This document shows positions 1 through 15,476 of a stretch of 16,094 bases of DNA, in pieces (position 1 is the first letter of the stretch; the number at the start of each line of letters is the position of its first letter). The notes under the pieces are model-generated. The model was not told where the DNA came from. It saw nothing but the letters and a program-made list of their open reading frames with translations, and searched no databases. A program made the translations under genes and the position numbers. The DNA comes from a virus. Its lineage: Duplodnaviria > Heunggongvirae > Uroviricota > Caudoviricetes. Location of the stretch: IMG/VR virus record IMGVR_UViG_2778261454_000010, positions 1-16,094 of that record, one strand, 5' to 3'.

Positions 1-714
1 TCAGATTATAACCTTCTTCCAGTCTAATCCTCGGTCGTCAGCGTACTCGTCACTCATCCCATCAGTTGTATGACCGAGCAATGTTTTCACATCAATTCCC
101 TGCTTCTTGTATAGCCTCGAAGAGAGAGATCTCTGCTCATGAAAAGATGGTGGTGTGGACCCAGCAGGGAACTTCAGTCCTGATTCGTCTCTCGCGGTGT
201 AAAAATAGCGTGATATTGAGTTAACCTTGATTTTACCGCCAGGTAAGGCTGATCCATGAGCGACGGTATGATGTACAAGATATTTGCTGACTACACCGTC
301 TCTACACCTTGCTACTACTTCTCTCAACGACATGCCGATAGCATCAAGCCTCAGTGATAAAGGGATAGCAACCTTCGAGCCTGTCTTGTTCTGGTTGATG
401 TGGAGGTGATCATCCCAAATATCAGAGAACTTTAGGTCTACAATATCGCCCGCTCGCTGCCCTGTAACCAACGCCAGAAGCATCGCGTTTTGAGCTGCAT
501 CCTGCATCCTCTCGGCGTGCTCATAAATAATCTTCCACTCTTCAAGTGTCAGGCGTTTACGCTTCACCTTAGCAACAGGATTTCTGGCAGCTAATGCCGG
601 ATTGTAACCTGGTGGAACCTCGCCAGCATGTTGCGCTTCCTTGAAGACGTCGTTTAAAACAGCCCTGACAAGCTGCCCTATCGCAGGTACGCTCTTCGCC
701 TTCTTTGTGCCAGG
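1..714 (-). pseudogene. int: Lambda-family tyrosine integrase, C-terminal catalytic region only (about 140 N-terminal residues missing)
   Basis: The minus-strand frame is open from 714 to a TGA stop at 3..1. The translation (..KRLTLEEWKIIYEHAE..LLALVTGQRAGDIVDLKFSDI..HEQRSLSSRLY..LLGHTTDGMSDEYADDRG) aligns by eye with the lambda Int catalytic domain. An in-frame TAG lies at 715-717 and there is no in-frame ATG; the only possible start is GTG at 565-567. Confidence 0.8.
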
Positions 715-997
715 CTACAACGTCGGCCACTGGCTCGGCGTTAACTACCGGTGCTGGCGGGGCGGTGTATAGCGGCAAACCTTGCCCACCGCCTGAGAAT
801 TGGTTATGTCCGTTATATTCAATTTCGTCACCGTGAGCACATACCCACGCCACAGGCTCGGCGTCCATTGCCGCCAGCGCGATACGGAAAACCTGAGCCG
901 TCATGCTGTTTTCTGAGTGCTCATCGTGAGCCGGGTCAGTGAGAAAGCCCGTGATGAATACTCGAAGCTCATGCTCTTTTGTGATTGGGGTTGTCAT
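569..997 (-). CDS. Hypothetical protein; the first ~95 residues look protein-like, the C-terminal ~45 residues are read out of frame across the integrase 5' region
   Basis: Six-frame ORF whose 3' portion (569-714) overlaps the integrase frame in a different phase and translates to a Cys/Arg/Gln-rich tail (..RTCDRAACQGCFKRRLQGSATCWRGS..). The start overlaps the stop of the upstream HNH gene (994-997). Confidence 0.3.
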   Translation of the reverse strand: MTTPITKEHELRVFITGFLTDPAHDEHSENSMTAQVFRIALAAMDAEPVAWVCAHGDEIEYNGHNQFSGGGQGLPLYTAPPAPVVNAEPVADVVAWHKEGEERTCDRAACQGCFKRRLQGSATCWRGSTRLQSGISCQKSCC

Positions 998-1701
998 ATT
1001 TTACCGTTCTCCAGTTTTTCTCCCTCGCCAAAAAAATCTCCGTGATACTTTCTCCTAGCTTCCATAGAAACAAGGCCTGCAAGCTCAATATCATCGTACA
1101 ATCCAAGGGATAGCTTCCTGCCATCAACGCCGATTGTTACGTACCATTTGGAAAACTTTTTATGCCAACTAACACCTTTAATTCCGCTAGTGTTGTGTGA
1201 ATGAACCTTCTGGTTTCTTGCGTTGTCTGCCCTACTTGCGTTTCTCAGGTTTATCCATCTGTCATCATTTCTTACTCTATTGATATGATCCGCTTCTGTA
1301 GGGAATTTCCCGGGCATATACAGAAATGCAAGCCTTCCTGCTTTATATTCCTTACCATTAATTTTTATATGCCTATATCCAGTGTGATGAATGCACCCAG
1401 CGATATCTCCACACTTAAAACCTCCCTTTGTATTTTTAATCCGAGTAAATACACCTGTATCTGGGTTGTAATGCAGATGCTCTTTCAAGACGTCCTGAGT
1501 TACCAGCGCCAGCACGTTGGCTGGCGTCGCTTCATCGTGAAATGAGTTAAGCGCCGTTATGTCCGCATCAAGCTGGGTGCCTTCAGCGAGTGAGATATCG
1601 AAAAGATCGCCCTCTGGCATCACGCTCAGACGCTCATACGCTCCCGTCGCGTTCAGCGCCGCCGCTTTCATACGCTGCGCCAGTTCTGTTGTCATGCTCA
1701 T
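994..1701 (-). CDS. HNH endonuclease (HNH_3-like motif) with a C-terminal AP2-like DNA-binding segment; phage homing-endonuclease-like
   Basis: ATG at 1699-1701 is preceded by GGGAGG and overlaps the TGA of the upstream 69-aa gene (ATGA). The translation carries ..GYRHIKINGKEYKAGRLAFLY..EADHINRVRNDDRWINLRNASRADNARNQ.. (HNH-type) and ..GIKGVSWHKKFSKWYVTIGVDGRKLSLGLYDDIELA.. (AP2-like). Confidence 0.75.
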   Translation of the reverse strand: MSMTTELAQRMKAAALNATGAYERLSVMPEGDLFDISLAEGTQLDADITALNSFHDEATPANVLALVTQDVLKEHLHYNPDTGVFTRIKNTKGGFKCGDIAGCIHHTGYRHIKINGKEYKAGRLAFLYMPGKFPTEADHINRVRNDDRWINLRNASRADNARNQKVHSHNTSGIKGVSWHKKFSKWYVTIGVDGRKLSLGLYDDIELAGLVSMEARRKYHGDFFGEGEKLENGKI

Positions 1702-1907
1702 GCTGCCTCCCAGCAAATCTGAGTTTTATAGACGCTCTTAACGCGTTGCACTTTTCCGGCAACTTCAAGCTTCTTCAGTCTGCGCAATACGTATGCGGTA
1801 TCGAGAGGTCGGTAGTTATCTCGAAGCCAGTTCGTCACTACGTAGGTCATGCAGCGACCATGCTCATTCAGCACCTGAATGATTTCTTCATCGGTTGGCT
1901 TGTTCAT
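1698..1907 (-). CDS. Small hypothetical protein, 69 aa (possible winged-helix DNA-binding fold, inferred)
   Basis: ATG at 1905-1907 is preceded by CGAGGAG with an 8-nt spacer, directly after the methyltransferase TAA. Its stop overlaps the HNH gene start. The sequence (..MTYVVTNWLRDNYRPLDTAYVLRRLKKLEVAGKVQR..) looks helical and basic. Confidence 0.5.
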   Translation of the reverse strand: MNKPTDEEIIQVLNEHGRCMTYVVTNWLRDNYRPLDTAYVLRRLKKLEVAGKVQRVKSVYKTQICWEAA

Positions 1908-1922
1908 GCTGCTCGCTCCTCG

Positions 1923-2660
1923 TTATTCACCATCACACAGCATGGAGAATGCTGCCGCTGCCACTCTTGGAACTTGTCCATTGCCAAGGGCTTTAATTCT
2001 GTCCACCCGATGGGCCACCCCATGAACCACTCGACCCATTCCGGGTTCAACTGTCCATCCTGGGGTGGCTGCGACCCATCTGGAAGTGGACGCATCTTTA
2101 TTGCACTTGGCAAGTCCGGAGTTCTGCGTAAGCGCTCGCTTGGACAATCGCCCCGTATTGTTGCTTTCGCTGTAGGCCACAATCCACATCCTGTCTCTTT
2201 CATGGGGCGCTCCGCAGTTCGATGCTGAAATACGAAACCACTCACAGCCACACCCCATTTCGGCAAGGTTACCAATGACCACTGCAAGGCCTTTTCCTCT
2301 GAGTCGCGGCGAATTTTCCACGCAGACGAATGCAGGTCGTACCTCACTGACGATTCTCGCCATTTCTGCCCACAGTCCAGAACGGCGTCCATTGATGCCG
2401 GCACCATGACCATTTGCGCTAATGTCCTGGCATGGAAACCCGCCAGATATGACATCAACAATCCCTCTCCACGGCTTTCCGTCAAAACTGCACACGTCAG
2501 ACCAAATCGGGAAAGGGCGGAGAATTCCATCGTTTTGTCGTTGCGCGAGAACTTGTGCTGCGTAGGCATCACGTTCAACTGCGCATACTGTTCGCCAGCC
2601 AAGGAGATGCCCTCCGAGTATTCCTCCGCCAGCGCCTGCGAAAAGAGCCAACTCATTCAC
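1923..2660 (-). CDS. DNA (cytosine-5)-methyltransferase, small phage-type enzyme of about 245 aa
   Basis: GTG start at 2658-2660 with GGAGGT five nt upstream, overlapping the TGA of the upstream ORF. Motifs read in order: I ..ELALFAGAGGGILGG.., IV ..GGFPCQDIS.., VI ..FVCVENSP.., VIII ..GAPHERDRMWIVA.., X-like ..RIKALGNGQVPRVAAAAF... Stop TAA at 1923-1925. Confidence 0.85.
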   Translation of the reverse strand: MNELALFAGAGGGILGGHLLGWRTVCAVERDAYAAQVLAQRQNDGILRPFPIWSDVCSFDGKPWRGIVDVISGGFPCQDISANGHGAGINGRRSGLWAEMARIVSEVRPAFVCVENSPRLRGKGLAVVIGNLAEMGCGCEWFRISASNCGAPHERDRMWIVAYSESNNTGRLSKRALTQNSGLAKCNKDASTSRWVAATPGWTVEPGMGRVVHGVAHRVDRIKALGNGQVPRVAAAAFSMLCDGE

Positions 2661-3015
2661 CGTTACCTCCGCGCAGCTGCCTTGCCAGATATTCAAGAGC
2701 CATTGCCGGAACGCCGACATGTCCTGTGCACGCAAATTTCGTGAGCAAATGCTCAATGGCTTTATCAACACCCCGCGCCTCAGCTTCTCGCAGGATGCTG
2801 TCTGTTGCCGGAGTTTCATGACAGGCACACAGCAATTCATGAATTGTCTGCATATCGACAATATCGCCGTCCGGCTGCTGTGTTAAATTCCACCGCTTAT
2901 AAATCTGGACTGACTCATCAGCCAGTAATATCGCCGCCGACTTAATCGCCAAATTCTCAGCCACCAAAGCCTTCAAATGCTCCTGCAACTCCACACCCTG
3001 TGGACAGTTCGTCAC
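2653..3015 (-). CDS. Hypothetical phage early-region protein, probably 5'-truncated at the 3060-3075 junction
   Basis: The frame is open upstream to 3072 with no ATG; the annotated start is GTG at 3013-3015. The TGA stop overlaps the methyltransferase start. No recognisable motif. Confidence 0.4.
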   Translation of the reverse strand: MTNCPQGVELQEHLKALVAENLAIKSAAILLADESVQIYKRWNLTQQPDGDIVDMQTIHELLCACHETPATDSILREAEARGVDKAIEHLLTKFACTGHVGVPAMALEYLARQLRGGNGE

Positions 3016-3072
3016 TTCACGCGCTTTCTCAATCGTTGAGTGTGCTGCTGTTAGTTCGCCTGCATGGTCGAG

Positions 3073-3314
3073 TTACCGGTCTCACCAATTACCGTGATTG
3101 CGGTAATGGTCTGAAGATTGACCTGGTTACTAACCCTGAACTGCTGGAGAAAGACATCAATGCCGCGCGTTCTGCTGCATGGTTCTATGCCTCCAAAGGT
3201 TGCCTGAAGTACACCGATGACCTGGTGCGCATCACTCAGATTATCAATGGCGGGCAGAACGGCATTAACGACAGACGCGTGCGTTACGCCAAAGCGAAAG
3301 CGGTGATTGCATGA
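3073..3314 (+). pseudogene. Endolysin remnant: C-terminal ~80 aa of a GH19 (chitinase-like) phage lysozyme; catalytic N-terminal part missing
   Basis: The translation ..TGLTNYRDCGNGLKIDLVTNPELLEKDINAARSAAWFYASKGC..ITQIINGGQNGINDRRVRYAKAKAVIA matches the conserved C-terminal block of GH19 endolysins as I recall it. Upstream in-frame sequence (3000-3070) is not protein-like and overlaps the minus-strand ORF. The stop overlaps the spanin start (ATGA at 3311-3314). Confidence 0.6.
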
Positions 3315-3589
3315 GCATTGTAGAAATCATCATTGGTGTCATTGGCGCTATCTGTGTTGCCGCTGCTAGTGGGTTTGGTCTTGGCCACATTCACGGTACC
3401 AGCAAAGCAGAAGCGAAAGCCGATCAACAACGCACTGAAGAAAACGCTGCCGCCATGAAAAAAGCTGCAGATCGTTGTGTGGAAGTCATCAAGGAGACAA
3501 GAGATGTGCAGGAGAATGTTAGTCGCATGCCTGATGACGATGTTGATCGCGAGCTGCGCGAAAACTTCACCCGCCCCGGTGGTGATTGA
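3311..3589 (+). CDS. Rz-like inner-membrane spanin (i-spanin)
   Basis: The N-terminus (MSIVEIIIGVIGAICVAAASGFGLG) is a single hydrophobic TM helix, followed by a charged, helical periplasmic segment. It sits directly after the endolysin remnant with ATGA coupling. Confidence 0.6.
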   Translation: MSIVEIIIGVIGAICVAAASGFGLGHIHGTSKAEAKADQQRTEENAAAMKKAADRCVEVIKETRDVQENVSRMPDDDVDRELRENFTRPGGD

Positions 3590-3716
3590 TACCGGTTGCC
3601 TGTGGGCACGGATTGTCTATCTGACCAACAGCGATATTGACCTGCTGGATAAGCAGACGAAGCGCGACATCCTAGCGCATAACAAAGCGTGGCAGGCGAA
3701 CTGTCAGAAAAAATGA
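3504..3716 (+). CDS. Rz1-like outer-membrane lipoprotein spanin (o-spanin), overlapping the i-spanin in the +1 frame
   Basis: ATG at 3504 with AAGGAG seven nt upstream. The N-terminus MCRRMLVACLMTMLIASC carries a lipobox (I-A-S-C) and the mature part is Pro-rich. It begins inside the Rz-like gene and extends past its stop. Confidence 0.55.
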   Translation: MCRRMLVACLMTMLIASCAKTSPAPVVIDTGCLWARIVYLTNSDIDLLDKQTKRDILAHNKAWQANCQKK

Positions 3717-3731
3717 ACTAATTAATGCAGT

Positions 3732-4319
3732 TTATAAAAAAATCTCTTCTGCGCATAAAAGATAACTTTCGTAAAAAGTTATCCCAAGCTCTGCAATAAC
3801 TATTGGATTTTTAGAATTCACTTCTTGTCCTAAGTGCGACTGAGGAGGGTTGTATGTGATCCCACGGTTACGACATGGAACTGCCTCTACTGAGCTTTGA
3901 GTAACTTCAACTCTCATTGGTGAGCCTGGAACGATTGTTGCACCACCATTACTATCAAATGAAATTGATTTGATGTGAACCATGCCACCTTGCTTTTCTG
4001 GATAGATACTAAACCCGCCAGGAACATATTTAGAGGTATCAGCAATCCCATGATGTGCTGAATTTCTGGCTTGCTTGAGATAGATGAGTAAACTATCAGA
4101 ATCACGCAGGTAGTTTGTTTTTGATGAAAATGAAGGGTATTTCTTGTGCTGCGCAGCAGCTACTTTTATCTTACCGTATACGTTTTCAATGCGGCTCAAA
4201 AAATCGCTCCAAGCCTCATCGTACTCATCATATGACTTAGCATTCTTCATACGCTCAACGCAGCGCTTTGCTCTTACCAATTCTTTTCTTGAAGGAAGTA
4301 AGTCCATTACCGTCACCAT
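3732..4319 (-). CDS. Orphan hypothetical protein (195 aa) in an AT-rich cargo segment; function unknown
   Basis: Long ORF on the minus strand, convergent with the spanin genes. Sampled 60-nt lines in this segment are about 38-42% G+C versus about 55-67% in the structural genes. No signal peptide, TM segment or assignable catalytic motif. Alternative ATG at 4305-4307 has GGTGA upstream. Confidence 0.6.
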   Translation of the reverse strand: MVTVMDLLPSRKELVRAKRCVERMKNAKSYDEYDEAWSDFLSRIENVYGKIKVAAAQHKKYPSFSSKTNYLRDSDSLLIYLKQARNSAHHGIADTSKYVPGGFSIYPEKQGGMVHIKSISFDSNGGATIVPGSPMRVEVTQSSVEAVPCRNRGITYNPPQSHLGQEVNSKNPIVIAELGITFYESYLLCAEEIFL

Positions 4320-4444
4320 TTTTAGTAGAAATGAAAAGCAAAGCTAACTCTTCATGAAACTTTAATCAATTAGCCAATAACCGAACTACAAATTATCCCC
4401 ACAAACGGATAAGACAATCAATATACCCTCTAAAGGATAAAACT

Positions 4445-4645
4445 ATGACGCCATTAGTTCTGACAGCAGAGCAGATAAAATCTCTTGCAGAATTTGCGGA
4501 GCAGGAAGGTCAGCCGTTCTATACCATCACCCACTCAACCATCCCTGAGTTTGAATCAGAAAGTGGTGATGTTGTTCCGGCATATGAAGGGCTGATTGCC
4601 TACTCAGAGTCAGAGGAACACGGCGTTCTTCAGCTCGACGACTGA
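4445..4645 (+). CDS. Small, highly acidic hypothetical protein (66 aa; about 14 Asp/Glu against 1 Lys)
   Basis: ATG at 4445 with AAGGA about seven nt upstream. The translation is MTPLVLTAEQIKSLAEFAEQEGQPFYTITHSTIPEFESESGDVVPAYEGLIAYSESEEHGVLQLDD. First gene of a short operon that ends at the terminator at 4978-5000. Confidence 0.5.
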   Translation: MTPLVLTAEQIKSLAEFAEQEGQPFYTITHSTIPEFESESGDVVPAYEGLIAYSESEEHGVLQLDD

Positions 4646-4684
4646 ACTGCCATTACAGAAGCTCTTCATTCAGGGGCTTCGATA

Positions 4685-4960
4685 ATGACCTTGAAATCTA
4701 TGGCCTTATCCGAGCATACTTTAGCAACCCTCCGTGTTGGTGGGGTGTTAAAGGGGATTGTTATGCTTGATAATTATTTCTACGATAAAAGTGGTTTTGA
4801 GCAAAAAGACGAAGTTAAGCGAGAAAAAGCAGTAGCTGCTGTACTTGAAATCCTTAAAGTTTCTGCTGGTCACTCACCAAGCCACGTAATTATTAGTGCT
4901 CTTAAGAACGAAGTAAATGAAGCAGCGGATGCGATTCAAGGAGCATTGGATAAAAAGTAA
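4685..4960 (+). CDS. Hypothetical protein (91 aa), second gene of the cargo cassette
   Basis: ATG at 4685 with AGGGG eight nt upstream. The sequence is helical and Lys-rich at the C-terminus. Followed 18 nt downstream by a strong intrinsic terminator. Confidence 0.5.
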   Translation: MTLKSMALSEHTLATLRVGGVLKGIVMLDNYFYDKSGFEQKDEVKREKAVAAVLEILKVSAGHSPSHVIISALKNEVNEAADAIQGALDKK

Positions 4961-4977
4961 CTGAGATGAAATAACAT

Positions 4978-5000
4978 AAACCGCCTATGGGCGGTTTTTT
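4978..5000 (+). terminator. Rho-independent terminator
   Basis: Perfect 8-bp stem AAACCGCC / GGCGGTTT with loop TATG, followed by a T-run to 5000. Confidence 0.75.
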
Positions 5001-5136
5001 ACTGCCATCACTGTGGGTAGGCTCATCCTAATAGCAATATCCCCCGCAAGGGATAATTAACGTGATATCCCCGTCGGGGGATAAAATCATATTTAAGCCA
5101 CTGGTATCCGCTGGTGGCTTTTTTATTGGAGTGAAT

Positions 5137-5427
5137 ATGGCATCCAATTCACCGTGGCATAGCCTCTATAATTCCAAGCGCTGGTACCGACTCCGATATC
5201 ACCAGCTTCAGAAGCAGCCTCTCTGCGAGTTCCACCTCCGGCGCAATCAGGTTATAGCCGCCACGATCGTTGACCATATCACCCCGCACAAGGGTAACGA
5301 GGCGCTATTTCATGACCAGGACAATCTTCAGTCACTCTGCAAACGTTGCCACGACTCGGTAAAGCAGAGGATGGAGAAGGGTGGAACGGTCACCGAGTTC
5401 GATAATAAAGGCCGTGTTATCTGGTAA
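5137..5427 (+). CDS. HNH endonuclease, packaging-associated (HK97 gp74-like position next to the terminase genes)
   Basis: ATG at 5137 with GGAG five nt upstream. HNH signature in the translation: ..CEFHLRRNQVIAATIVDHITPHKGNEALFHDQDNLQSLCKRCHDSVKQ... Located immediately upstream of TerS and TerL. Confidence 0.8.
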   Translation: MASNSPWHSLYNSKRWYRLRYHQLQKQPLCEFHLRRNQVIAATIVDHITPHKGNEALFHDQDNLQSLCKRCHDSVKQRMEKGGTVTEFDNKGRVIW

Positions 5428-5439
5428 CAGGAGTAGTTG

Positions 5440-5649
5440 ATGCAAGACATGAAGATTGAATACCGTGATGGGAAGTTGATTGAGTTGAGCATTGATAGCG
5501 TGAGCTTTAAACATGCCACTGCAGTCTCCTTCAATCATGAGGTCGTTGAGATGCTGCCTACCATTACCCTCACATTGCCAATCGGCGTTGGTGATCGTCT
5601 GGTGCCCTCTGGCATACCTCACTCAAGCTTACACGTAATTGAGAAATGA
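5440..5649 (+). CDS. Small hypothetical protein (69 aa) between the HNH and TerS genes
   Basis: ATG at 5440 with AGGAG six nt upstream. No recognisable motif. Confidence 0.4.
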   Translation: MQDMKIEYRDGKLIELSIDSVSFKHATAVSFNHEVVEMLPTITLTLPIGVGDRLVPSGIPHSSLHVIEK

Positions 5650-5769
5650 TATCAATTCTCATATTTATTTTGGTAAGGGAGGGGGTGGGATAAAACTCTG
5701 GTACCAAATTCTTAAAGACCGCGCCCTCAACTCTTTTTTTAAAAACGTCCAGAAAAAAAGGAAAAACCG

Positions 5770-6204
5770 ATGGCACAGCGAGGCAGAAAGTCTCTGGCTG
5801 CGACGTCTGCTGTCTCGTTGCCGGCACTGGCTGAAAGCAGGCTGCAGCCGTCCATTCATCTGAGCGATCCGGAAATTAATGTATGGGTAAGGCTCGTTAA
5901 TGACAATCCAGCTAGTTCATTCACTGAAACTCATCGAGACATGATGGAGATGTACTGCCGCCATGTTGTTCAGGCCAGAATAATCACCACTCAGCTTGAA
6001 GAGTTTGAACTGGAGTGGCTATCGCGCGAGGACGGACTTAAGCGGTACGACAAGCTTCTTGCCATGCGCGAGCGTGAAGTGCGTTCGGCATCTTCACTGG
6101 CAACACGTTTAAGGATCACCCGCCAGGCTACTGCCGACCCAAAAACAGTTGGCCGAGCGCACAACAATCTGGCTCGGGAGAAAAAACCCTGGGAAATTGA
6201 TTAA
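5770..6204 (+). CDS. Terminase small subunit (P27/HK97 gp1-like, by position and N-terminal basic segment)
   Basis: ATG at 5770 after an A-rich AAGGA region. The N-terminus MAQRGRKSLAATS.. is basic. The gene lies directly upstream of the large terminase gene. Confidence 0.7.
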   Translation: MAQRGRKSLAATSAVSLPALAESRLQPSIHLSDPEINVWVRLVNDNPASSFTETHRDMMEMYCRHVVQARIITTQLEEFELEWLSREDGLKRYDKLLAMREREVRSASSLATRLRITRQATADPKTVGRAHNNLAREKKPWEID

Positions 6205-6213
6205 GGCTCTTTG

Positions 6214-7746
6214 ATGGCAAAAAAAAATCTGACAAGAGCCGAGAGAAATATTCTCTGGTGCGAAAGAAATATTGTTATTCCTGAAGGAAAGTTCGTGGGC
6301 CAGCCACTGAAAATGGCTGAGTTCATGAAGGATGATTTTAGGGCTATTTTCGATAACAAGCATGGCACACGTCGCGCAATTATCAGCCGTGGGCGAAAGA
6401 ACGCCAAAACGGTAGAGACCGCCATGCTGATGCTGCTCTACCTGGTGGGGCCGGAGGCGGCGCCGAACTCGCAGCTGTATTCTGCCGCACGCTCGCGTGA
6501 CCAGGCGGCCATTCTGTTTAACCTGGCCTCCAAGATGTGCCGGATGAATCCGGTGCTCATGCAGTATGTGGCGATAAAGGACTCGGCGAAAGAAATTCAC
6601 TGCCCCGAACTGGGTTCTTATTATCGGGCGCTGAGCGCAGAGGCCACGACTGCCTATGGTTTCTCGCCTCGATTTGTCGCGCATGATGAACTGGGACAGG
6701 TTCGTGGGCCCCGTGATCCCCTTTATGAAGCACTGGAAACTGCGACTGCTGCTCAGGATAACCCTATCTCGGTGATTATCAGCACTCAGGCGCCCGATGC
6801 GAGCGATCTACTCAGCCTGCTGATTGATGATGGACTGACCGGTGCTGACCCGCGCACGGTGGTCCGTCTACAGACGGCCCCGGAAGATATCGATCCTTTC
6901 TCCGTTGACGCCATAAGGCTGGCAAACCCGGCCTTCGATGTGTTTATGAACCAGAAAGAAGTGCTTGATATGGCCGCCAGCGCGAAGCGCCTCCCGTCAC
7001 GACAGGCTGAGTTTGAGAACCTTGTGCTGAATCGCAGGGTTGAAGCTAAAAGTCCTTTCGTCAGTCAGACAGTCTGGCACATGAATAAAGAAGAACCCGG
7101 CGAACTGGCAGGGGCTACCGTCTGGGGCGGGCTGGACCTTTCCAGTGTCTCGGACCTTACCGCACTGGTACTCAACACAACCCAGGGTGATGTGCACTGT
7201 AAGTTCTGGCTACCTGAAGAGGGGCTGGCGGACAAGGCGCGTAACGATCGAGTGCCTTATGACATCTGGGCCAGGCAGGGTTTTCTCAATACGACACCCG
7301 GAAAGGCCATTGAATATGCATTTATTGCGCGCGAAATGCGGCGCGTTTTCGACATTTGCAATGTCAGGGCGCTGGCGTTCGACCGTTACAACATGCGTTT
7401 CCTTCGCCCACATCTAATAGACGCAGGATTCACGGAAACTGAGCTCGAGCGGTTCGTGGAATTCGGCCAGGGCTTTGTCTCCATGTCACCTGCGCTGAGG
7501 GAGCTGGAAGCCAAGCTACTCGGAGCGCAGCTTAAACATGGCAACCATCCGATCCTCGAAATGTGCGCCAAAAACGCCACGGTTATTTCTGATCCCGCCG
7601 GAAACCGAAAGTTTGTGAAAGGTAAATCAAGCGGGCGTATCGATGGAATGGTTGCTCTGGCGATGTCAATCGGCGCCCAGACGAGTGATGAGGTGGAGGA
7701 TCCAGGCGACGTCAATGATTTCATTTATAACTTCTTGAGCGTGTAA
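6214..7746 (+). CDS. Terminase large subunit (ATPase plus nuclease)
   Basis: 510-aa product with an ATPase region (..RFVAHDELGQV.. Walker-B-like) and a C-terminal nuclease region. Standard position after TerS. The ATG at 6214 is preferred over the TTG at 6211. Confidence 0.9.
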   Translation: MAKKNLTRAERNILWCERNIVIPEGKFVGQPLKMAEFMKDDFRAIFDNKHGTRRAIISRGRKNAKTVETAMLMLLYLVGPEAAPNSQLYSAARSRDQAAILFNLASKMCRMNPVLMQYVAIKDSAKEIHCPELGSYYRALSAEATTAYGFSPRFVAHDELGQVRGPRDPLYEALETATAAQDNPISVIISTQAPDASDLLSLLIDDGLTGADPRTVVRLQTAPEDIDPFSVDAIRLANPAFDVFMNQKEVLDMAASAKRLPSRQAEFENLVLNRRVEAKSPFVSQTVWHMNKEEPGELAGATVWGGLDLSSVSDLTALVLNTTQGDVHCKFWLPEEGLADKARNDRVPYDIWARQGFLNTTPGKAIEYAFIAREMRRVFDICNVRALAFDRYNMRFLRPHLIDAGFTETELERFVEFGQGFVSMSPALRELEAKLLGAQLKHGNHPILEMCAKNATVISDPAGNRKFVKGKSSGRIDGMVALAMSIGAQTSDEVEDPGDVNDFIYNFLSV

Positions 7747-7748
7747 AA

Positions 7749-9026
7749 ATGGCAGATACCGATTACAGCATTGACCTGCGAACGCGATCGCCATTCTGGG
7801 CGCGCATGGCCTCCATCCTGACAGGGGGCCGCCTTGTGACGCCTGACAAGGGCTCGCAGATGGCAGGAACGTCCGCGCACGGTGTGGTTGGCGACTCCGT
7901 AGTGACTGACGAGCGAAATATGCAAATCAGCACTGTGTGGGCATGCATCAGGCTTATCTCTACCGTGACCGCATCATTACCCCTTGATGTCTACCAGACC
8001 AAAGACAATCAGAGAAGCAAGGTACCTGGCACACACCCTCTCGCGAGGTTACTGCGCTTCCGTCCCAACAATTTCATGACCGCGCTGGAGTTTCGTGAGG
8101 CCATGACCATGCAGCTTTGTGCTTATGGAAACGCCTACGCGCATGTGGAGCGAAACAGCGTCGGCGACGTTATCAGCATGGTTCCGCTGATGAGCGCCAA
8201 TATGGAAGTGCGGCTCAGTGAAAACGGCAAAACCATTATCTACCGCTACCAGCGTGATACTGAATATGCCAATTTTTCGCAGAAAGAAATTTTCCATCTT
8301 AAGGGTTTTGGCTTCAACGGACTGACCGGCCTGTCTCCGCTGGCGTTCAGCGCGAAGTCTGCAGGTGTCGCCATTGCCATGGAAGACAATCAGCGTGAGT
8401 TTTTCGCAAACGGCGCGAAGTCTCCTCAGATTCTGATGACCGATGGCAAGGTGCTTACCAAAGAGCAGCGTGGACAGCTGGAGGAAAACTTCAAGGAGAT
8501 TGCTGGCGGCCCGGTTAAAAAGCGCCTCTGGATCCTGGAGAGCGGTTTTACGACTCAAGCTATTGGCGTCTCTCCTCAGGACTCGGAAATTCTGGCCGCG
8601 CGAAAGTTTCAGGTTGCCGAGCTGGCGCGGTTCTATGGTGTACCGCCGCACCTGGTCGGTGATGTGGAAAAAACAACATCGTGGGGCTCGGGGATTGAGC
8701 AGCAAAACCTGGGCTTTCTCCAGTACACCCTCAAGCCCTATCTCGATCGGTGGGAGTACAGCATTGAACGCTGGCTGGTTAAAGAGTCCGAACAGGGCAC
8801 TATTCACGCTGAGCATAACCTCGATGGGCTGCTGCGCGGTGATTCAACAAGCCGGGCATCGTTTATGCAGATCATGGTTAACACCGGGATCCGAACCGTT
8901 AACGAAGTGCGGCGACTGGACAACCTGCCGCCTCTGCCAGGGGGTGACGTTGCCACCCGCCAGTCGCAGAACGTACCCATTACCGACCTTGGAACAAACA
9001 ATAAGTCCCTCAATGAAGGGACTTAA
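7749..9026 (+). CDS. Portal protein (HK97 family)
   Basis: 425-aa ORF starting 2 nt after the TerL stop. Size, position and sequence character match HK97-type portals. Confidence 0.85.
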   Translation: MADTDYSIDLRTRSPFWARMASILTGGRLVTPDKGSQMAGTSAHGVVGDSVVTDERNMQISTVWACIRLISTVTASLPLDVYQTKDNQRSKVPGTHPLARLLRFRPNNFMTALEFREAMTMQLCAYGNAYAHVERNSVGDVISMVPLMSANMEVRLSENGKTIIYRYQRDTEYANFSQKEIFHLKGFGFNGLTGLSPLAFSAKSAGVAIAMEDNQREFFANGAKSPQILMTDGKVLTKEQRGQLEENFKEIAGGPVKKRLWILESGFTTQAIGVSPQDSEILAARKFQVAELARFYGVPPHLVGDVEKTTSWGSGIEQQNLGFLQYTLKPYLDRWEYSIERWLVKESEQGTIHAEHNLDGLLRGDSTSRASFMQIMVNTGIRTVNEVRRLDNLPPLPGGDVATRQSQNVPITDLGTNNKSLNEGT

Positions 9027-9031
9027 TTTTT

Positions 9032-9712
9032 ATGGGGGCCATGATGCCTGACATTCACAAAACACTGGCTTTTGACCAGACCGAAATTAAGTTCACCGGC
9101 GACGGTGAAAGCGGCATCTTTGAGGGGTACGCCTCCGTTTTTAATAATACTGATTCTGACGGCGATATTATCCTTCCCGGCGCATTCAGCGGTGTTATTT
9201 CCGGTCAGAGCCGTAAGGTGGCGATGTTCTTTAACCATCAGACGCGCGCTATCCCGGTCGGCAAATGGGATTCCATGCATGAGGATGAAAAAGGTTTGTT
9301 TGTCCGTGGGCAACTCACTCCAGGACTAAGCCTCTCTGAAGACCTGAAAGCGGCGATGAAACATGGCACCGTTGATGGGATGTCAGTGGGATTCTCTGTT
9401 GGCCCTGATGATTACACCGTTGGTTCGTCCGGCCTCATCTTCAAAAATATTTCGTATCTGCGGGAAATCAGTGTCTGCACTTTCCCGGCCAACGAGCTGG
9501 CGGGTATCACCGCCATGAAGTGCATCGACAGTATCAAAACCATTCGTGACGCGGAGGCCTGGCTGAGGGATTCAGTCGGCTTAACGCGCGCAGAAGCGCA
9601 GGCCTTTATTGCCCGCGTGAAGTCCGCAGGCCGGAGCGAGTCCGGTAGCGGCGACATTGACGCGCTGGCACAGCGCATAACTTCATTTGCCGCTAATCTG
9701 CGGAATACATAA
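9032..9712 (+). CDS. Prohead maturation protease (HK97 gp4-like)
   Basis: 226-aa ORF between the portal and capsid genes. The N-terminal region (..FEGYASVFNNTDSDGDIILPGAFSG..FFNHQTRAIPVGKW..) is typical of HK97-family prohead proteases. Confidence 0.85.
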   Translation: MGAMMPDIHKTLAFDQTEIKFTGDGESGIFEGYASVFNNTDSDGDIILPGAFSGVISGQSRKVAMFFNHQTRAIPVGKWDSMHEDEKGLFVRGQLTPGLSLSEDLKAAMKHGTVDGMSVGFSVGPDDYTVGSSGLIFKNISYLREISVCTFPANELAGITAMKCIDSIKTIRDAEAWLRDSVGLTRAEAQAFIARVKSAGRSESGSGDIDALAQRITSFAANLRNT

Positions 9713-9723
9713 CGGAGTACCAC

Positions 9724-10887
9724 ATGTCTGAATTAGCAACCCTCGAAAAAGCGATTGAGAATTCACAGAAAGAAGTGAAAGAACTCATCGAAGAGCAGCG
9801 TAAATCCATCAGCCAGAACGGCGAAATCAACAAACAGCTGCAGACCGACCTGACCAAAGCGCAGGAAGAGCTGAAAACCACCGGCTCCCGCCTGTTCGAT
9901 CTGGAACAGAAGCTGGCCGGAAACTCACCTGACCAGACCACCCAGAAGTCCTTTGCGGAGCGCGTTTCTGAAGACCTGATGAAAGGCTGGGACGGCTCCC
10001 GTACCAAAGCGAAAGTCACCAGTTTCGATAAGGCGATCGGTTCTGGCGCTGCATCCGCCGGTGTGCTTGTACAGCCCCAGCAGGTACCTGGTATTCTGAT
10101 GCCGGGCCTGCGTCGCCTGACCGTTCGTGACCTGCTGGCACAAGGGCGCATCACCAGTAACGCGCTGGAATATGTGCGTGAAAATGTGTTCACCAACGCC
10201 GCCGCACCGGTTGCTGAAGGTACCCTCAAACCAGAGAGTAATATCACGTTCACCAAAGAAACAGCGAATGTCAAAACCATTGCCCACTGGATCCAGGCAT
10301 CACGCCAGATTATGGATGACGCCCCGGCGCTGCAGTCCTATATCAACTCCCGCATGATGTACGGTCTCGCGCTGGTGGAAGAGAATCAGATGCTTAACGG
10401 TGATGGCACCGGCGACAACCTCCAGGGGTTGAACGTGGTGGCGAACGAATACGAAACCGCACTTAACGCGACCGGGGATACTGGTGCTGATGTTCTGGCG
10501 CATGCCATCTACCAGGTGTCGCTAAGTGAGTTCGAAGCCGACGGCATCATTCTCAACCCGGCTGACTGGCATCGCATCGCATTGCTGAAGGACGCCAATG
10601 GCAATTACATCCTCGGCGGCCCTCAGGCGTTTGCGTCAAAAGTGCTCTGGGGCCTGCCGGTTGTATCAACAACCGCGCAGACGGCAGGAAAGTTCACCGT
10701 TGGTGCATTTGGCCTGGCGTCTCAGGTGTGGGACCGCATGGATGCCACTATCGAAATCAGTAACCAGGATCGCGATAACTTCGTTAAAAACATGCTGACC
10801 ATTCTGTGCGAAGAGCGTCTGGCTCTGGCGCACTACCGTCCCGCAGCTATCGTCACTGGCGATATTGCGATTTCTTCCGGCGAATAA
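9724..10887 (+). CDS. Major capsid protein (HK97 fold) with N-terminal delta/scaffolding domain
   Basis: ATG at 9724 with GGAG upstream. The first ~100 aa form a charged coiled-coil-like region (delta domain), followed by a capsid-fold region (..AEGTLKPESNITF..). Standard position after the protease. Confidence 0.9.
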   Translation: MSELATLEKAIENSQKEVKELIEEQRKSISQNGEINKQLQTDLTKAQEELKTTGSRLFDLEQKLAGNSPDQTTQKSFAERVSEDLMKGWDGSRTKAKVTSFDKAIGSGAASAGVLVQPQQVPGILMPGLRRLTVRDLLAQGRITSNALEYVRENVFTNAAAPVAEGTLKPESNITFTKETANVKTIAHWIQASRQIMDDAPALQSYINSRMMYGLALVEENQMLNGDGTGDNLQGLNVVANEYETALNATGDTGADVLAHAIYQVSLSEFEADGIILNPADWHRIALLKDANGNYILGGPQAFASKVLWGLPVVSTTAQTAGKFTVGAFGLASQVWDRMDATIEISNQDRDNFVKNMLTILCEERLALAHYRPAAIVTGDIAISSGE

Positions 10888-10895
10888 CAGCAGGG

Positions 10896-10918
10896 CGCGG
10901 TCAGAAATGGCCGCGTTT
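10896..10918 (+). terminator. Weak stem-loop after the capsid gene (possible partial terminator)
   Basis: CGCGG - 10-nt loop - CCGCG followed by TTT. Short stem and short T-tract, so likely low efficiency. Confidence 0.3.
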
Positions 10919-10923
10919 ACGAT

Positions 10924-11166
10924 ATGAAAATTAAAGCTCTCCGTATGTTCTCACATTACCACCTCGGAACTGTATCCCAAGGCGAGAGCCGGGTGGTGAA
11001 GAAAGAGATCGGCGACGCGCTGGTGAAACTGCGCCTTGCCGAAGAGATTGAACCCGAAAAGGCGGAAACTTCCGTTCCTGAAAAGCCTGTAAAAACCAAA
11101 GCCGGGGGTAAAGGTGGAAATAAGCGCGGAGCAGATGGCGCTGATAAAGGCGCATCTGAGGGTTGA
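10924..11166 (+). CDS. Small hypothetical protein after the capsid gene (Lys/Gly-rich C-terminus)
   Basis: 80-aa ORF with no clear Shine-Dalgarno sequence. Its 3' end overlaps the start of the connector gene. Confidence 0.35.
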   Translation: MKIKALRMFSHYHLGTVSQGESRVVKKEIGDALVKLRLAEEIEPEKAETSVPEKPVKTKAGGKGGNKRGADGADKGASEG

Positions 11167-11440
11167 TAGTGACGCTGAAGATTCGCTAATCACCGCTTAT
11201 ACATCAGCGGCCGTCGATTATGTTGAGCAGTTCTGCGACGGCGCGCTGGTGGAATCGTTAACGCCGCCGGAGGAAGGGGAAATGCCACCTCGTGAGATCC
11301 TGTTTACTCCCGGTATCTGGGCAGCAATGCTTTTGCTGATTGCACACTGGTATGCGAACCGCGAAGCAGCAGCGCAGAACCTCACGGAAATGCCTTTAGG
11401 TGTTGAGGCGCTGTTAATACGGCACCGGAGGTGGCACTGA
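11114..11440 (+). CDS. Head-tail connector (gp6-like adaptor) protein
   Basis: Translation ..EISAEQMALIKAHLRVDSDAEDSLITAYTSAAVDYVEQ.. matches the characteristic N-terminus of gp6-like connectors. The start is uncertain: GTG at 11114 or ATG at 11135. Confidence 0.65.
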   Translation: MEISAEQMALIKAHLRVDSDAEDSLITAYTSAAVDYVEQFCDGALVESLTPPEEGEMPPREILFTPGIWAAMLLLIAHWYANREAAAQNLTEMPLGVEALLIRHRRWH

Positions 11441-11500
11441 TGGCATGTTCCGGGTGCGCCGCCCGTCGAGAGTGGCTTAAAAAGTGGATGAAAATCGCCT

Positions 11501-11686
11501 ATGAACGAGCAACAGGTAAAAAATCTGCTGGCAGCAATGACCGCGCAGACCAACGCAATGAACCGCCTGGCGGAGTCAAATGAAGCCCTGGTCGCTTTAC
11601 TCTATCAATCCCTCGCTGATGACATCGAAACGACAACGTTAGATTCCCCGGTGCCGACCTACCTAAGCGGAAAGCCCAGGGGGTAG
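11501..11686 (+). CDS. Small hypothetical head-tail region protein
   Basis: 61-aa helical ORF whose TAG stop is immediately followed by the ATG of the head-closure gene. Weak ribosome-binding site. Confidence 0.35.
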   Translation: MNEQQVKNLLAAMTAQTNAMNRLAESNEALVALLYQSLADDIETTTLDSPVPTYLSGKPRG

Positions 11687-11688
11687 CG

Positions 11689-12021
11689 ATGCAGGCTGGA
11701 AAGCTCAATAAACGAATCACGCTTCAGAAGCCTGTTAAAACCCAGAGCCCTGTTACCGGCGCAGTAGTTAGTGGATGGGCTGATGTGTCTGAGCTTTGGG
11801 CTAACGTTGCCGATTTGTCAGCCCGTGACTTTGTTGCCGCGCAAGCGGGGCAGAGCGAGGTAACAACGCGGATCACTATCCGCTGGCGTGATGATGTCAC
11901 GGATAAGCATCGCATTCTTTACCGTGGGCGTGTTTACGACATTCAGGGTGTACTGGAAGATGATAAAAGCGGACGGGAATATCTGACGCTACCCTGCTCG
12001 CGAGGTGTTAACGATGGCTGA
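11689..12021 (+). CDS. Head closure / head-tail joining protein (SPP1 gp16-like)
   Basis: ATG at 11689 with AGGGGG upstream. The translation ..KRITLQKPVKTQ..TRITIRWRDDVTDKHRILYRGRVYDIQGV..LTLPC.. fits the family pattern. Confidence 0.65.
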   Translation: MQAGKLNKRITLQKPVKTQSPVTGAVVSGWADVSELWANVADLSARDFVAAQAGQSEVTTRITIRWRDDVTDKHRILYRGRVYDIQGVLEDDKSGREYLTLPCSRGVNDG

Positions 12022-12553
12022 TGGCATTGATTTTAGTATAACCGGGGTCGATTCACTTCTGGGGAAGCTGGACAGTATCAGCGATGATCTGCGCCGCCGT
12101 GGTGGTCGGGCAGCACTTCGTAAGGCGGCAAATGTGATTGCCGCTAAAGCCAGAGATAACGCAGCCCGTGTGGATGATCCGCTAACCAAGGAATCGATTA
12201 GCAAAAATATTGTGGCCAGATGGAGCAATGTTACATTCCGAAGAACCGGTAATCTGGCTTTCAGGGTTGGCGTTTTGGGCGGAGCCATTTCGTATGCTGA
12301 TTCAAGAGAAAACAGGCGGAAAGGTCGTGCGGGAAGATTGTATTACACCCCCGGCAATTCACAAAATCCAGGCGGGAATACCTGGTACTGGCGTTTTTTG
12401 GAGTTTGGCACAGAAAATATGCCAGCCCAGCCCATTCTTCGCCCGGCAGCGCAAGGCAGTGTGGACGAAGTGGTAAGCGTATTCGCCTCGGAATACGAAA
12501 AGTCTATTGACCGTGCCATCAGGCGCGCGGCGAAAAAAGGAGTACCCCCGTGA
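12014..12553 (+). CDS. HK97 gp10-like head-tail/tail component protein
   Basis: ATG at 12014 with GAGGTG six nt upstream, overlapping the end of the previous gene. Size and position are consistent with the family. Confidence 0.6.
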   Translation: MADGIDFSITGVDSLLGKLDSISDDLRRRGGRAALRKAANVIAAKARDNAARVDDPLTKESISKNIVARWSNVTFRRTGNLAFRVGVLGGAISYADSRENRRKGRAGRLYYTPGNSQNPGGNTWYWRFLEFGTENMPAQPILRPAAQGSVDEVVSVFASEYEKSIDRAIRRAAKKGVPP

Positions 12554-12915
12554 TTGCGCCGATCTTTATCGTCTGCGCCGCAAGTCCTCCGGTGGTTGCG
12601 CTACTGGGCGGTGACACACTGCGCCTGTATCCGTTCGGCCAGCAGGACGACAACGTGGTCTATCCCTATGTGGTCTGGCAGAACATCACCGGTTCTCCGG
12701 AGAACTACCTTGCCCAGCGCCCTGATGCAGACTTTTTCACGCTGCAGGTGGATGCATATGCCGACACAGTGGATGAAGTGATTGCCGTGGCTACTGCGCT
12801 GCGGGATGCCATTGAGCCGCACGCGCATATCACGCGCTGGGGCGGACAGGAAAGAGATCCCGAAACAAAACGCTATCGCTATTCGTTCGATGTGGACTGG
12901 ATAGTCAATCGATAA
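12550..12915 (+). CDS. Tail completion / tail terminator protein (DUF3168-like)
   Basis: GTG at 12550 overlaps the upstream TGA, with AAGGAG eight nt upstream. 121-aa product in the expected slot before the major tail gene. Confidence 0.55.
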   Translation: MIAPIFIVCAASPPVVALLGGDTLRLYPFGQQDDNVVYPYVVWQNITGSPENYLAQRPDADFFTLQVDAYADTVDEVIAVATALRDAIEPHAHITRWGGQERDPETKRYRYSFDVDWIVNR

Positions 12916-12925
12916 GAACCTTCCC

Positions 12926-12949
12926 AACCGGCCTTGAGCCGGTTTTTTT
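12926..12949 (+). terminator. Rho-independent terminator
   Basis: Stem AACCGGC / GCCGGTT with loop CTTGA, followed by a run of seven T. Confidence 0.7.
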
Positions 12950-12966
12950 ATGACCGGAGATAATAA

Positions 12967-13464
12967 ATGTCTGTATTAACTCAAGGCACACAACTCTTTG
13001 TGCTTGCCAGTGGCGCGGTGAGCGAAATCGAGTGTATCACTGCATTTTCGCCTGGTAGTAACCCTGCCGACCAGATTGAAGACACGTGTCTTTCTGAAAA
13101 GTTTGACCGCTCCTATAAGCGGGGCCTACGAACTCCCGGGACCGCCTCACTCACTCTGAATGCCGACCCAAAAAATACCAGCCACGTGATGCTGCACAAC
13201 CTGTCGATTTCCGATGATGAGAGCGATCAGGATCTGACGTTTGCGATTGGCTGGGCCGATGGTACAGCGTCACCAACAGTTGCTACCGAAGAGGCAAGCG
13301 GTGCTGTTGATGGGCTGGTGCTCCCGGACAGCCGTACGTGGTTTGTTTTTAAAGGTTACGTCTCCGACTTCCCTTTTGATTTTGCAGCAAACACGGTCGT
13401 CTCCACCTCCGCATCTATCCAGCGTTCCGGTTCTGCGGTGTGGGTTCCTAAGGCAGCTTCTTAA
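12967..13464 (+). CDS. Major tail (tube) protein
   Basis: ATG at 12967 with GGAGA upstream. 165-aa beta-rich protein in the position immediately before the G/G-T chaperone genes. Confidence 0.6.
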
Positions 13465-13468
13465 ACTG

Positions 13469-13487
13469 ATGGGGCTTGATGCCCCAT
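13469..13487 (+). promoter_or_regulatory. Stem-loop between the major tail and chaperone genes
   Basis: ATGGGGC - TTGAT - GCCCCAT, a 7-bp perfect stem followed by TTTC; a possible attenuator or partial terminator. Confidence 0.3.
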
Positions 13488-13501
13488 TTCGAGAGACAAA
13501 A

Positions 13502-13987
13502 ATGAAATTAACGCTTGAAGCACTCAAGGAGTCCGGCGCGTTTACCGGCCGTCCGGTTGAGAAAGAGATATCCTGGAAACAGGGCGATAAGAAAATCACT
13601 GCGACCGTGTATGTTCGCCCGATGGGGTATCACACAGCGACGTCCGATGTACTGGCATTTGGGGGTAAGGTGGATGGTGTGGCAGGACGCATTGCAGCAT
13701 CTATCTGCGATGAACTGGGTAAGCCTGTCTTCACCCCGGCAGACATCACTGGTGAGGCCGACCCTGAGCGTGGTGCGCTGGATGGTGGTCTGACGGTTGC
13801 GCTACTGTTGGCTATTCAGGAAGTTAACGATCTGGGAAAGACTTCGAGCTCAGCGCCGAAGACGAATTCTGGTGCGAGCTCGTCCTCAACGGAATCGGAG
13901 GTAAAACGATCGCCGAAGCGCGTGAGTCGCTCTCATTCAAAGAGTCCCAGCTCTGGGCAAAATACCGGGAAAGATATGGAAGCCTGA
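13502..13987 (+). CDS. Tail assembly chaperone G (zero-frame product)
   Basis: ATG at 13502. Contains the slip heptamer G_GGA_AAG at 13834-13840 in the correct phase. The zero-frame sequence after the slip site is Ser-rich and low-complexity. Confidence 0.7.
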   Translation: MKLTLEALKESGAFTGRPVEKEISWKQGDKKITATVYVRPMGYHTATSDVLAFGGKVDGVAGRIAASICDELGKPVFTPADITGEADPERGALDGGLTVALLLAIQEVNDLGKTSSSAPKTNSGASSSSTESEVKRSPKRVSRSHSKSPSSGQNTGKDMEA

Positions 13988-14495: not shown

Positions 14496-14505
14496 GGAGT
14501 TGATT

Positions 14506-15443: not shown

Positions 15444-15476
15444 CGATATAGTCGGTTCAAACATTTATTAAACTTC

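Follow-up and report, generated by a model that had tools for sequence, protein, structure and literature searches.

A compact overlapped spanin pair of the HK639/mEp390 type, very probably a recently stranded relic, in a prophage of Escherichia coli

Background

The virus record IMGVR_UViG_2778261454_000010 (Caudoviricetes) of the IMG/VR database, analysed here from position 1 to 16,094 and referred to as the window, contains on its plus strand two small overlapping genes that follow directly on the fragment of an endolysin gene. The first gene encodes a protein of 92 amino acids (aa) with a hydrophobic N-terminus, and the second one, which starts within the first, encodes a lipoprotein. This arrangement raises the question of whether the two genes specify a genuine two-component spanin, consisting of an inner-membrane subunit (i-spanin) together with a lipoprotein of the outer membrane (o-spanin), although the former is so short, and whether such a pair can still contribute to lysis in its present genetic context. 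The original prediction, which was made from the DNA sequence, had described an overlapped spanin pair with an unusually short i-spanin and had regarded both genes as probable functionless relics, since the endolysin is truncated and no holin is present. The analysis described below indicates that the window contains, with high probability, a genuine, sequence-intact and overlapped two-component spanin pair of the type found in the phages HK639 and mEp390, and that this pair is a recently stranded relic.

Results and discussion

Identification of the spanin genes

The i-spanin gene (Table 1) encodes the protein MSIVEIIIGVIGAICVAAASGFGLGHIHGTSKAEAKADQQRTEENAAAMKKAADRCVEVIKETRDVQENVSRMPDDDVDRELRENFTRPGGD. 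A single hydrophobic segment at approximately residues 3-25, with a best 19-residue Kyte-Doolittle mean of 2.43, is predicted to form a transmembrane (TM) helix and is followed by a charged C-terminal remainder that includes the conserved motif MPDDDVDRELRE.FTRPG. The ATG start codon of the gene overlaps the stop codon of the endolysin reading frame (ATGA). The profile PHROG 1026, designated 'Rz-like spanin', matches the protein end to end (E value 3e-27; residues 1-89 versus positions 4-84 of 85), and its length of only 85 positions indicates that the i-spanin family as a whole is short. Over the full length, the protein is 65% identical to gp70 of HK639 and 59% identical to the i-spanin of mEp390.

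The o-spanin gene lies in the +1 frame relative to the i-spanin gene, as (3504-3311) mod 3 equals 1; this frame is open from position 3477 and the gene runs 127 nucleotides (nt) beyond the i-spanin stop codon. The position of both genes, the length of 92 aa, the start at 3504, the +1 frame and the extension past the stop codon had been given in exactly this way by the original prediction. The precursor consists of the signal peptide MCRRMLVACLMTMLIAS and the mature part CAKTSPAPVVIDTGCLWARIVYLTNSDIDLLDKQTKRDILAHNKAWQANCQKK, and the lipobox junction, marked by a slash, reads MCRRMLVACLMTMLIAS/CAK. Within the signal peptide an n-region with the residues RR, a hydrophobic core and the canonical lipobox LIAS/C can be distinguished, and sorting of the lipoprotein to the outer membrane is predicted because position +2 is occupied by alanine and not by aspartate. 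Two further cysteines, C32 and C67, recur in each of the 58 unique sequences; they supply the periplasmic cysteines expected in a spanin complex, to which the i-spanin of the window adds C56. The profile PHROG 1275, likewise designated 'Rz-like spanin', covers the o-spanin over residues 1-70 (positions 4-72 of 81; E value 5e-31), and the identity amounts to 77% with the HK639 protein, when the latter is read from its corrected start, and to 64% with that of mEp390.

The gene pairs of HK639 and mEp390 are listed in SpaninDB with the architecture 'ovl' (overlapped) and an overlap of 86 nt (Table S4; Kongari et al. 2018, PMC6139136). According to this catalogue, their i-spanins comprise 91 aa with 65-67 periplasmic residues and approximately 72% predicted helix and have no periplasmic cysteine, and Table S3 of the same study reports no predicted coiled coil for them; the o-spanins comprise 75 aa, 58 of them in the mature protein, with two periplasmic cysteines (PMC6139136). 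SpaninDB assigns the i-spanins of HK639 and mEp390 to the family 'HK639' and the o-spanins to the family 'BcepNazgul', which has ten members including the one of Pseudomonas phage AF (PMC6139136), and membership of a family requires there that 40% or more of the periplasmic domain of an i-spanin, or of the mature domain of an o-spanin, aligns to members with an identity of 40% or more. By sequence, the two proteins of the window belong to the families 'HK639' (PHROG 1026) and 'BcepNazgul' (PHROG 1275), respectively. The o-spanin carries the lipobox and the outer-membrane sorting signal by which two-component spanins are recognised (Kongari et al. 2018), and the genes show the typical overlapped arrangement directly after a GH19 endolysin gene, of which a remnant is present in the window and an intact copy in HK639, in mEp390 and in a closely related intact prophage (designated L004). 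The compact overlapped spanin pair proposed by the original prediction is thus borne out by the end-to-end profile matches, by the similarity to the HK639 pair and by an overlap of identical length.

Searches of Pfam and NCBIfam provided no model for either protein. Homology to Rz/Rz1 of phage lambda or to LysB/LysC of phage P2 was rejected on this basis, as no Rz/Rz1 family was reported even at E values up to 1, and sub-threshold matches to DUF6550, DUF2681 and TrbK were regarded as noise caused by the signal peptide or by low complexity. A search of solved structures yielded nothing meaningful for the i-spanin or the o-spanin. The AlphaFold2 (AF2) model of the o-spanin contains a block with predicted local distance difference test (pLDDT) values of 83-94 over residues 31-68, in which a compact helical domain at approximately residues 30-68 is bracketed by both cysteines and preceded by a flexible linker of about 12 residues, which begins behind the cysteine predicted to carry the lipid. 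A Foldseek comparison of the o-spanin with the BFVD collection retrieved phage proteins named O-spanin, namely those of Pectobacterium phage PP101, Escherichia phage Mangalitsa and Proteus phage Myduc, with approximately 32% identity. The AF2 model of the i-spanin, computed from an alignment of 51 sequences and used for rough helix boundaries alone and not for fold comparison in view of its pLDDT of 56, places helices at residues 3-23, 37-71 and 75-84, with a linker after the first one; these low-confidence helices agree with the helix content of about 72% listed in SpaninDB (PMC6139136).

Conservation and selection in both reading frames

When IMG/VR was scanned with an alignment of the o-spanin, at least 565 relatives were detected, of which the best 80 loci were analysed. 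The ATG start codon, the lipobox LI[A/G]SC, the 86-nt overlap and the +1 frame were retained in all 80 of them, as were the RR/K n-region and the two distal cysteines of the o-spanin. The i-spanin measured 87-93 aa in each of the 79 loci with a complete gene, with 91 aa (n = 55) and 92 aa (n = 18) as the prevailing lengths. Judged from these loci, an i-spanin of about 90 aa and an overlap of 86 nt in the +1 frame are fixed features of the whole family. The attribute 'unusually short' is accordingly justified with respect to Rz of phage lambda but not within the family, where 87-93 aa is the rule. Short i-spanins occur elsewhere in SpaninDB as well, such as those of the Chi group (84 aa), of Jenny_12G5 (80 aa), of AF (82 aa) and of ICP3, with a gene of 144 nt (PMC6139136), which places a length of 92 aa at the low end of the range without making it unique or the shortest. 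Two observations that had been named in advance as speaking against the pair, a lipoprotein frame missing from relatives and an i-spanin shortened by a frameshift, did not materialise: the lipoprotein frame is conserved throughout, and a frameshift or truncation of the i-spanin was ruled out by the full-length PHROG match and by the normal length of the protein in all relatives.

At the protein level, homologs of the i-spanin were found in 1454 clusters, among them clusters from E. coli, Enterobacter, Citrobacter, Kluyvera, Klebsiella, Salmonella and Pseudocitrobacter; the best 120 were all 90-96 aa long and all named 'hypothetical protein'. The o-spanin was represented by only 256 clusters with called lengths of 60-122 aa, a discrepancy pointing to an overlapped gene that annotation evidently overlooks or starts wrongly in many cases. 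A distant DNA search of phage genomes returned 87 records, including HK639, mEp390 and many temperate phages of Klebsiella and Salmonella.

Purifying selection was examined by the entropy at each codon position, computed over 72 unique DNA segments, and by pairwise pN/pS ratios. In the part that encodes only the i-spanin, the entropy was 0.28/0.36/1.11 for the first, second and third position, and in the part that encodes only the o-spanin it was 0.35/0.27/0.86 in the gene's own frame, again with the third position being most variable. Within the 86-nt overlap the entropy was low at all three positions (0.19/0.21/0.41). The pN/pS ratio was 0.235 for the i-spanin-only part and 0.213 for the o-spanin-only part. 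Together, the codon-position statistics and the pN/pS ratios indicate purifying selection in both frames, with the overlap being doubly constrained. In this overlap the i-spanin motif MPDDDVDRELRE dominates and the signal peptide of the o-spanin accommodates it. Covariation of the o-spanin with the C-terminal part of its partner was uninformative, since both segments are encoded by the same or by tightly linked DNA.

These data bear on the possibility that the lipoprotein frame is open by chance, or that only the shorter products called by annotation pipelines (44-66 aa, lacking a signal peptide) are genuine. By chance, an alternative frame would stay open over 79 codons with a probability of approximately 0.02, so that the frame taken alone is weak evidence and conservation is decisive; moreover, RefSeq and automated gene callers do annotate shorter products. 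The ATG codon, the n-region, the lipobox cysteine and the two distal cysteines in 80 of 80 loci and the pN/pS ratio of 0.21 in the gene's own frame speak against a chance frame, as do the strong Shine-Dalgarno sequence AAGGAG at the right spacing and the corrected start of the HK639 gene in SpaninDB. This explanation was refuted by the conservation analysis and retains virtually no probability.

The start of the o-spanin gene is mis-annotated in several records. The RefSeq entries of HK639_71 (contig L001, 3016-3165) and of mEp390 gp52 (L002, 3015-3167) begin at a GTG codon located past the lipobox, and the o-spanin allele of the window has been called as products of 44-66 aa on sister contigs (L004, 6224-6406; L005, 6272-6406). 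The curators of SpaninDB corrected the HK639 gene with the remark that it 'had a wrong start again' (PMC6139136).

A further observation concerns Cys56 of the i-spanin, which is encoded at positions 3476-3478 and is located in the periplasmic helix. HK639, mEp390 and nearly all relatives have an arginine at this position, and a periplasmic cysteine is missing from 65 of the 67 unique i-spanins from IMG/VR. As the Cys56 allele is also present in the intact sister prophage L004, it is not a mutation of decay.

The spanin genes are stranded behind a truncated lysis cassette

The lysis cassette of the window is incomplete. The endolysin remnant lacks the N-terminal portion of approximately 123 residues together with the start codon, so that about residues 124-203 of 203 are left, and the segment GHES...EN that precedes this portion in the intact prophage L004 is absent. 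Between positions 3073 and 9589 the window is 100% identical to L004, whereas the DNA before position 3073 is unrelated. The right arms of the truncated and the intact prophages share 99.985-100% identity, corresponding to at most 1 nt difference in 6.6 kb. The exact 92-aa i-spanin was found on 24 contigs, six of which carry an intact cassette (L004 and five similar ones) and 18 the truncated layout, and the junction at 3072/3073 is common to all contigs of the truncated type (L005, L006, L007, L088-L093). In the order typical of L004, a Q-like antiterminator gene is followed, after further genes, by two holin genes (Phage_holin_8 and Phage_holin_3_7), the gene of the 203-aa GH19 endolysin and the i-spanin gene and the o-spanin gene, and further downstream by the terminase gene. 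In the truncated layout, minus-strand genes of the early left region, encoding an integrase remnant, Exc, an HNH protein, a DNA methylase and a 120-aa protein, abut the endolysin fragment, and the genes upstream of this fragment are divergently oriented with respect to the spanin genes.

A tblastn search with both holins of L004 gave no match in the window, and no holin family was recognised among the neighbouring open reading frames (ORFs), in agreement with the original prediction, which had also been right about the truncated endolysin. The L004 genes for the LexA-like, RusA, Rha/ANT, DUF968, Q-like (DUF1133/antitermQ) and protease proteins had no match in the window at the protein or DNA level, and neither had any part of the L004 positions 1-5762. 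A consensus scan revealed no sigma-70-like site on the plus strand between positions 2500 and 3311. Accordingly, holins, a full-length endolysin and a Q-type antiterminator with a late promoter, all of which belong to a functional lysis cassette, are missing from the window. On sister contigs, the prophage is flanked by chromosomal genes that match E. coli cdgI-dgcJ with 100% identity, which identifies E. coli as the host and places the prophage beside cdgI/dgcJ. An intact prophage with the left arm of the window was searched for and not found, all 20 contigs with the exact 120-aa neighbour protein having the truncated layout; a simple deletion or a recombination between two prophages may each have produced the junction.

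We propose that a single deletion or recombination event removed everything between the early left genes and codon 123 of the endolysin gene, namely the immunity and replication genes, the Q-like antiterminator gene, the late promoter region and both holin genes. The loss of the cassette leaves the spanin genes without an evident promoter, without a partner for translational coupling and without a trigger that degrades the cell wall; any coupling through the ATGA overlap is lost as well, because the endolysin remnant has no proper start. The spanin genes of the window are most likely silent, recently stranded relics, and the view of the original prediction that they are without function is well supported by the loss of the endolysin N-terminus, the holins and the Q-like antiterminator region. 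As judged by its gene content, the prophage is defective and its own genes would be unable to lyse the host. The nearly complete identity to the intact sister prophage indicates that the deletion is recent, and the intactness of the spanin genes consequently says nothing about selection; for the same reason, a selection test on the stranded copies has no power.

Spanins of the Rz/Rz1 type can act in trans on any cell whose wall has been degraded. It is therefore conceivable that the pair has been retained and domesticated, for instance for use with the holin and endolysin of another prophage or for vesicle formation or explosive lysis. Both spanin genes are fully intact throughout the 18 contigs of the truncated type that were read, and the truncated prophage, its junction unchanged, has become diverse in the int/xis region. 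However, a right arm of 6.5 kb that is 100% (or 99.985%) identical to that of the intact prophage leaves no time for decay and contains no signal of selection, and the truncated contigs were retrieved by means of the exact protein sequence, so that decayed spanin copies would have escaped detection. Moreover, the Q-like antiterminator gene has been lost together with the late promoter region, and the plus strand upstream contains no promoter-like site. We consider domestication improbable.

Membrane topology and possible mode of action

Several points weigh against the interpretation as a functional type of spanin pair that has become a silent relic. The confidence of the AF2 model is low for the i-spanin (pLDDT 56). 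An invariant glutamate (residue 4 or 5) precedes the TM helix of this protein and basic residues (GH.RG.SK) follow it directly, a charge pattern that does not favour the required N-in/C-out topology; the curators of SpaninDB voiced the same doubt over the proteins of HK639, of mEp390 and of Pseudomonas phage AF (Kongari et al. 2018, PMC6139136). A literature search found no experimental report on the HK639-type spanin family, and the assignment as spanins draws on gene position, membrane signals and curated prediction. In addition, the promoter scan was a crude consensus scan, which may miss weak transcription or transcription by alternative sigma factors.

The same charge pattern and the reservation of the SpaninDB curators would fit an alternative assignment, in which the 92-aa protein is a small membrane protein with N-out/C-in topology, such as a lysis regulator or a holin accessory protein, and the lipoprotein works alone or with another partner. 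The absence of a predicted coiled coil in the proteins of HK639 and mEp390 (SpaninDB Table S3) points in this direction as well. Against this assignment it can be held that the 92-aa gene always overlaps an outer-membrane lipoprotein gene by 86 nt and always follows an endolysin gene, and that the C-terminal motif is the most conserved part of the protein, as expected for a site of contact with the o-spanin. Moreover, the cassettes of L004, HK639 and mEp390 contain no other candidate for the inner-membrane partner, and the same combination of genes is annotated as Rz/Rz1 in Pseudomonas phage AF. A function other than that of an i-spanin therefore appears very unlikely.

If the pair is a spanin, as we prefer, the 92-aa protein would be the inner-membrane subunit with one N-terminal TM helix, about 65 periplasmic residues that are mostly helical, and a conserved acidic/basic motif at the C-terminus. 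The 70-aa precursor would be processed to an outer-membrane lipoprotein of 52 aa, with a short flexible linker and a small helical domain containing the two conserved cysteines. By analogy with Rz/Rz1 of phage lambda, the subunits would bind each other via their C-terminal regions and thereby bridge the periplasm, the peptidoglycan mesh would keep the complex inactive, and the spanins would fuse or disrupt the outer membrane after destruction of the wall by the endolysin. For the i-spanin ectodomain, a rough estimate that counts 0.15 nm per residue of predicted helix and adds extended linkers arrives at a length of about 11-12 nm; the o-spanin would contribute about 6-7 nm. Fully extended, at roughly 18-19 nm, the pair would only just span the periplasm of E. 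coli. Periplasmic lengths are not conserved among the spanins of the same host (Kongari et al., PMC6139136).

Short i-spanins with an acidic N-terminus may constitute a class that inserts or acts in a manner different from the Rz paradigm, or the stranded copy may be kept for an envelope function beneficial to the host; we regard this combined scenario as a rather remote one. Such a class, partnering o-spanins of the BcepNazgul type, would be characterised by the invariant glutamate, the basic residues after the TM helix, an ectodomain of about 65 residues and the lack of a predicted coiled coil, and its members may gain their topology by an unusual route or may bridge a periplasm that their extended length barely spans.

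Left arm and neighbouring genes

The integrase of the window (1-997) is represented only by a C-terminal catalytic fragment with an ORF of 188 aa. On sister contigs, the integrase gene is present as an N-terminal arm-binding fragment of 155 aa (L005 and L006, 2611-3434) or as an intact gene of 379 aa (L007, 3792-4931). These different int/xis lesions are combined with the same 3072/3073 junction, which indicates that the junction predates the later rearrangements. The pattern points to several independent later lesions in what appears to be one defective prophage lineage at the cdgI/dgcJ locus of E. coli. An ORF of 250 aa on the minus strand (1904-2656) shows 91.6% DNA identity to the cytosine methyltransferase/adenine methylase region of Salmonella phage S9-5 and, as an orphan methylase, may be among the few genes of the remnant with a remaining significance for the host.

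Downstream of the lysis genes, a moron-like stretch of low GC content (0.38-0.45) extends from 3650 to 5000 and separates them from the HNH and terminase genes. It contains a converging minus-strand gene (3732..4319) for a protein of 195 aa, which matches PHROG 23516 (unknown function) and has no match in Pfam, NCBIfam or PADLOC, and two small ORFs on the plus strand that match PHROG 9518 and PHROG 5901, both of unknown function. Models of defence systems matched neither the 195-aa gene nor the other flanking ORFs. At more than 79% identity, the lysis region was detected in none of 5,426 complete E. coli genomes; all sightings of the prophage came from draft assemblies and metagenomes (42 index blocks).

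Table 1. Position of the lysis-related features in the window
Feature	Position	Strand	Description and evidence
Deletion/recombination junction	3072..3073	.	Joins distal early-left genes (minus strand, 1..3015) to mid-endolysin (codon 124)
GH19 endolysin 3' remnant	3073..3314	+	Codons ~124-203 of 203; aligns to residues 123-203 of the 203-aa enzyme; PHROG 181 endolysin, partial Pfam GH19 match
i-spanin gene	3311..3589	+	92 aa; translation, PHROG 1026 match, homology to HK639 gp70
Shine-Dalgarno sequence AAGGAG of the o-spanin gene	3490..3495	+	Read from sequence; 7 nt before ATG 3504
o-spanin gene	ATG 3504..3716	+	70-aa precursor, predicted 52-aa mature lipoprotein; translation, PHROG 1275, conservation
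Dual-coding overlap, 86 nt	3504..3589	+	i-spanin C-terminal motif in frame 0; o-spanin signal peptide and lipobox in frame +1

Relevance of the spanin family

The spanin family described here was already catalogued in 2018 (SpaninDB) and is represented in the PHROG collection, and the pair of the window is another allele of it. Compared by sequence, the only features specific to this locus are Cys56, which L004 has as well, the slightly shorter C-terminus of the o-spanin and the stranded context. The biological weight of another allele in a recently crippled E. coli prophage is small, and the practical value of the analysis lies in annotation: as no Pfam or NCBIfam model exists, both proteins are named 'hypothetical protein' in RefSeq and the lipoprotein gene is mis-started or missed. 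Beyond annotation, the family provides a natural minimal spanin for exploring the lower size limit of a fusion machine that spans the periplasm, and it is likewise suited for asking if an acidic N-terminus is compatible with the N-in topology.

Comparison with known spanin systems

The paradigm of the two-component spanins, Rz/Rz1 of phage lambda, resembles the pair of the window in combining an inner-membrane subunit with a lipoprotein of the outer membrane, in using shared DNA for both where the lysis cassette ends, and presumably also in the formation of a complex through the C-termini and in the disruption of the outer membrane after degradation of the wall. The lambda genes differ in being embedded, Rz has two coiled-coil domains within its 153 aa, Rz1 is rich in proline and lacks structure, and periplasmic cysteines are present in both proteins. 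The pair of the window is accordingly best described as analogous to Rz/Rz1, since homology is not detectable at the sequence level. LysB/LysC of phage P2 are overlapped in the +1 frame like the genes of the window, whereas LysB has 141 aa and the sequence families are unrelated. PseT.3/PseT.2 of phage T4 share an i-spanin that typically has no periplasmic cysteine and an o-spanin with two cysteines and real secondary structure in place of a proline-rich coil; in this system, however, the two genes lie apart from each other, the i-spanin exceeds that of the window in length, and the families are unrelated.

A closer resemblance is seen in Pseudomonas phage AF, whose overlapped genes, annotated as Rz/Rz1, specify according to SpaninDB an i-spanin of 82 aa with 61 periplasmic residues and an acidic N-terminus. 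The o-spanin of AF is clearly homologous to that of the window (PVVIDT.C.W...TK..I.AHN..W...C), whereas its i-spanin is distant in sequence and stands as a singleton among the SpaninDB families; AF also differs in host and in phage type. The closest counterparts are the pairs of the plaque-forming phages HK639 (gp70/gp71) and mEp390 (gp51/gp52), which share with the window a +1 overlap of exactly 86 nt, an i-spanin of 91-92 aa, about 65 of them periplasmic, and an o-spanin with the lipobox LIAS/C, alanine or valine at position +2 and two further conserved cysteines. In both phages the pair directly follows two holin genes and the GH19 endolysin gene; in the window, the o-spanin ends five residues earlier, and the cassette no longer contains the holins or the endolysin's catalytic half.

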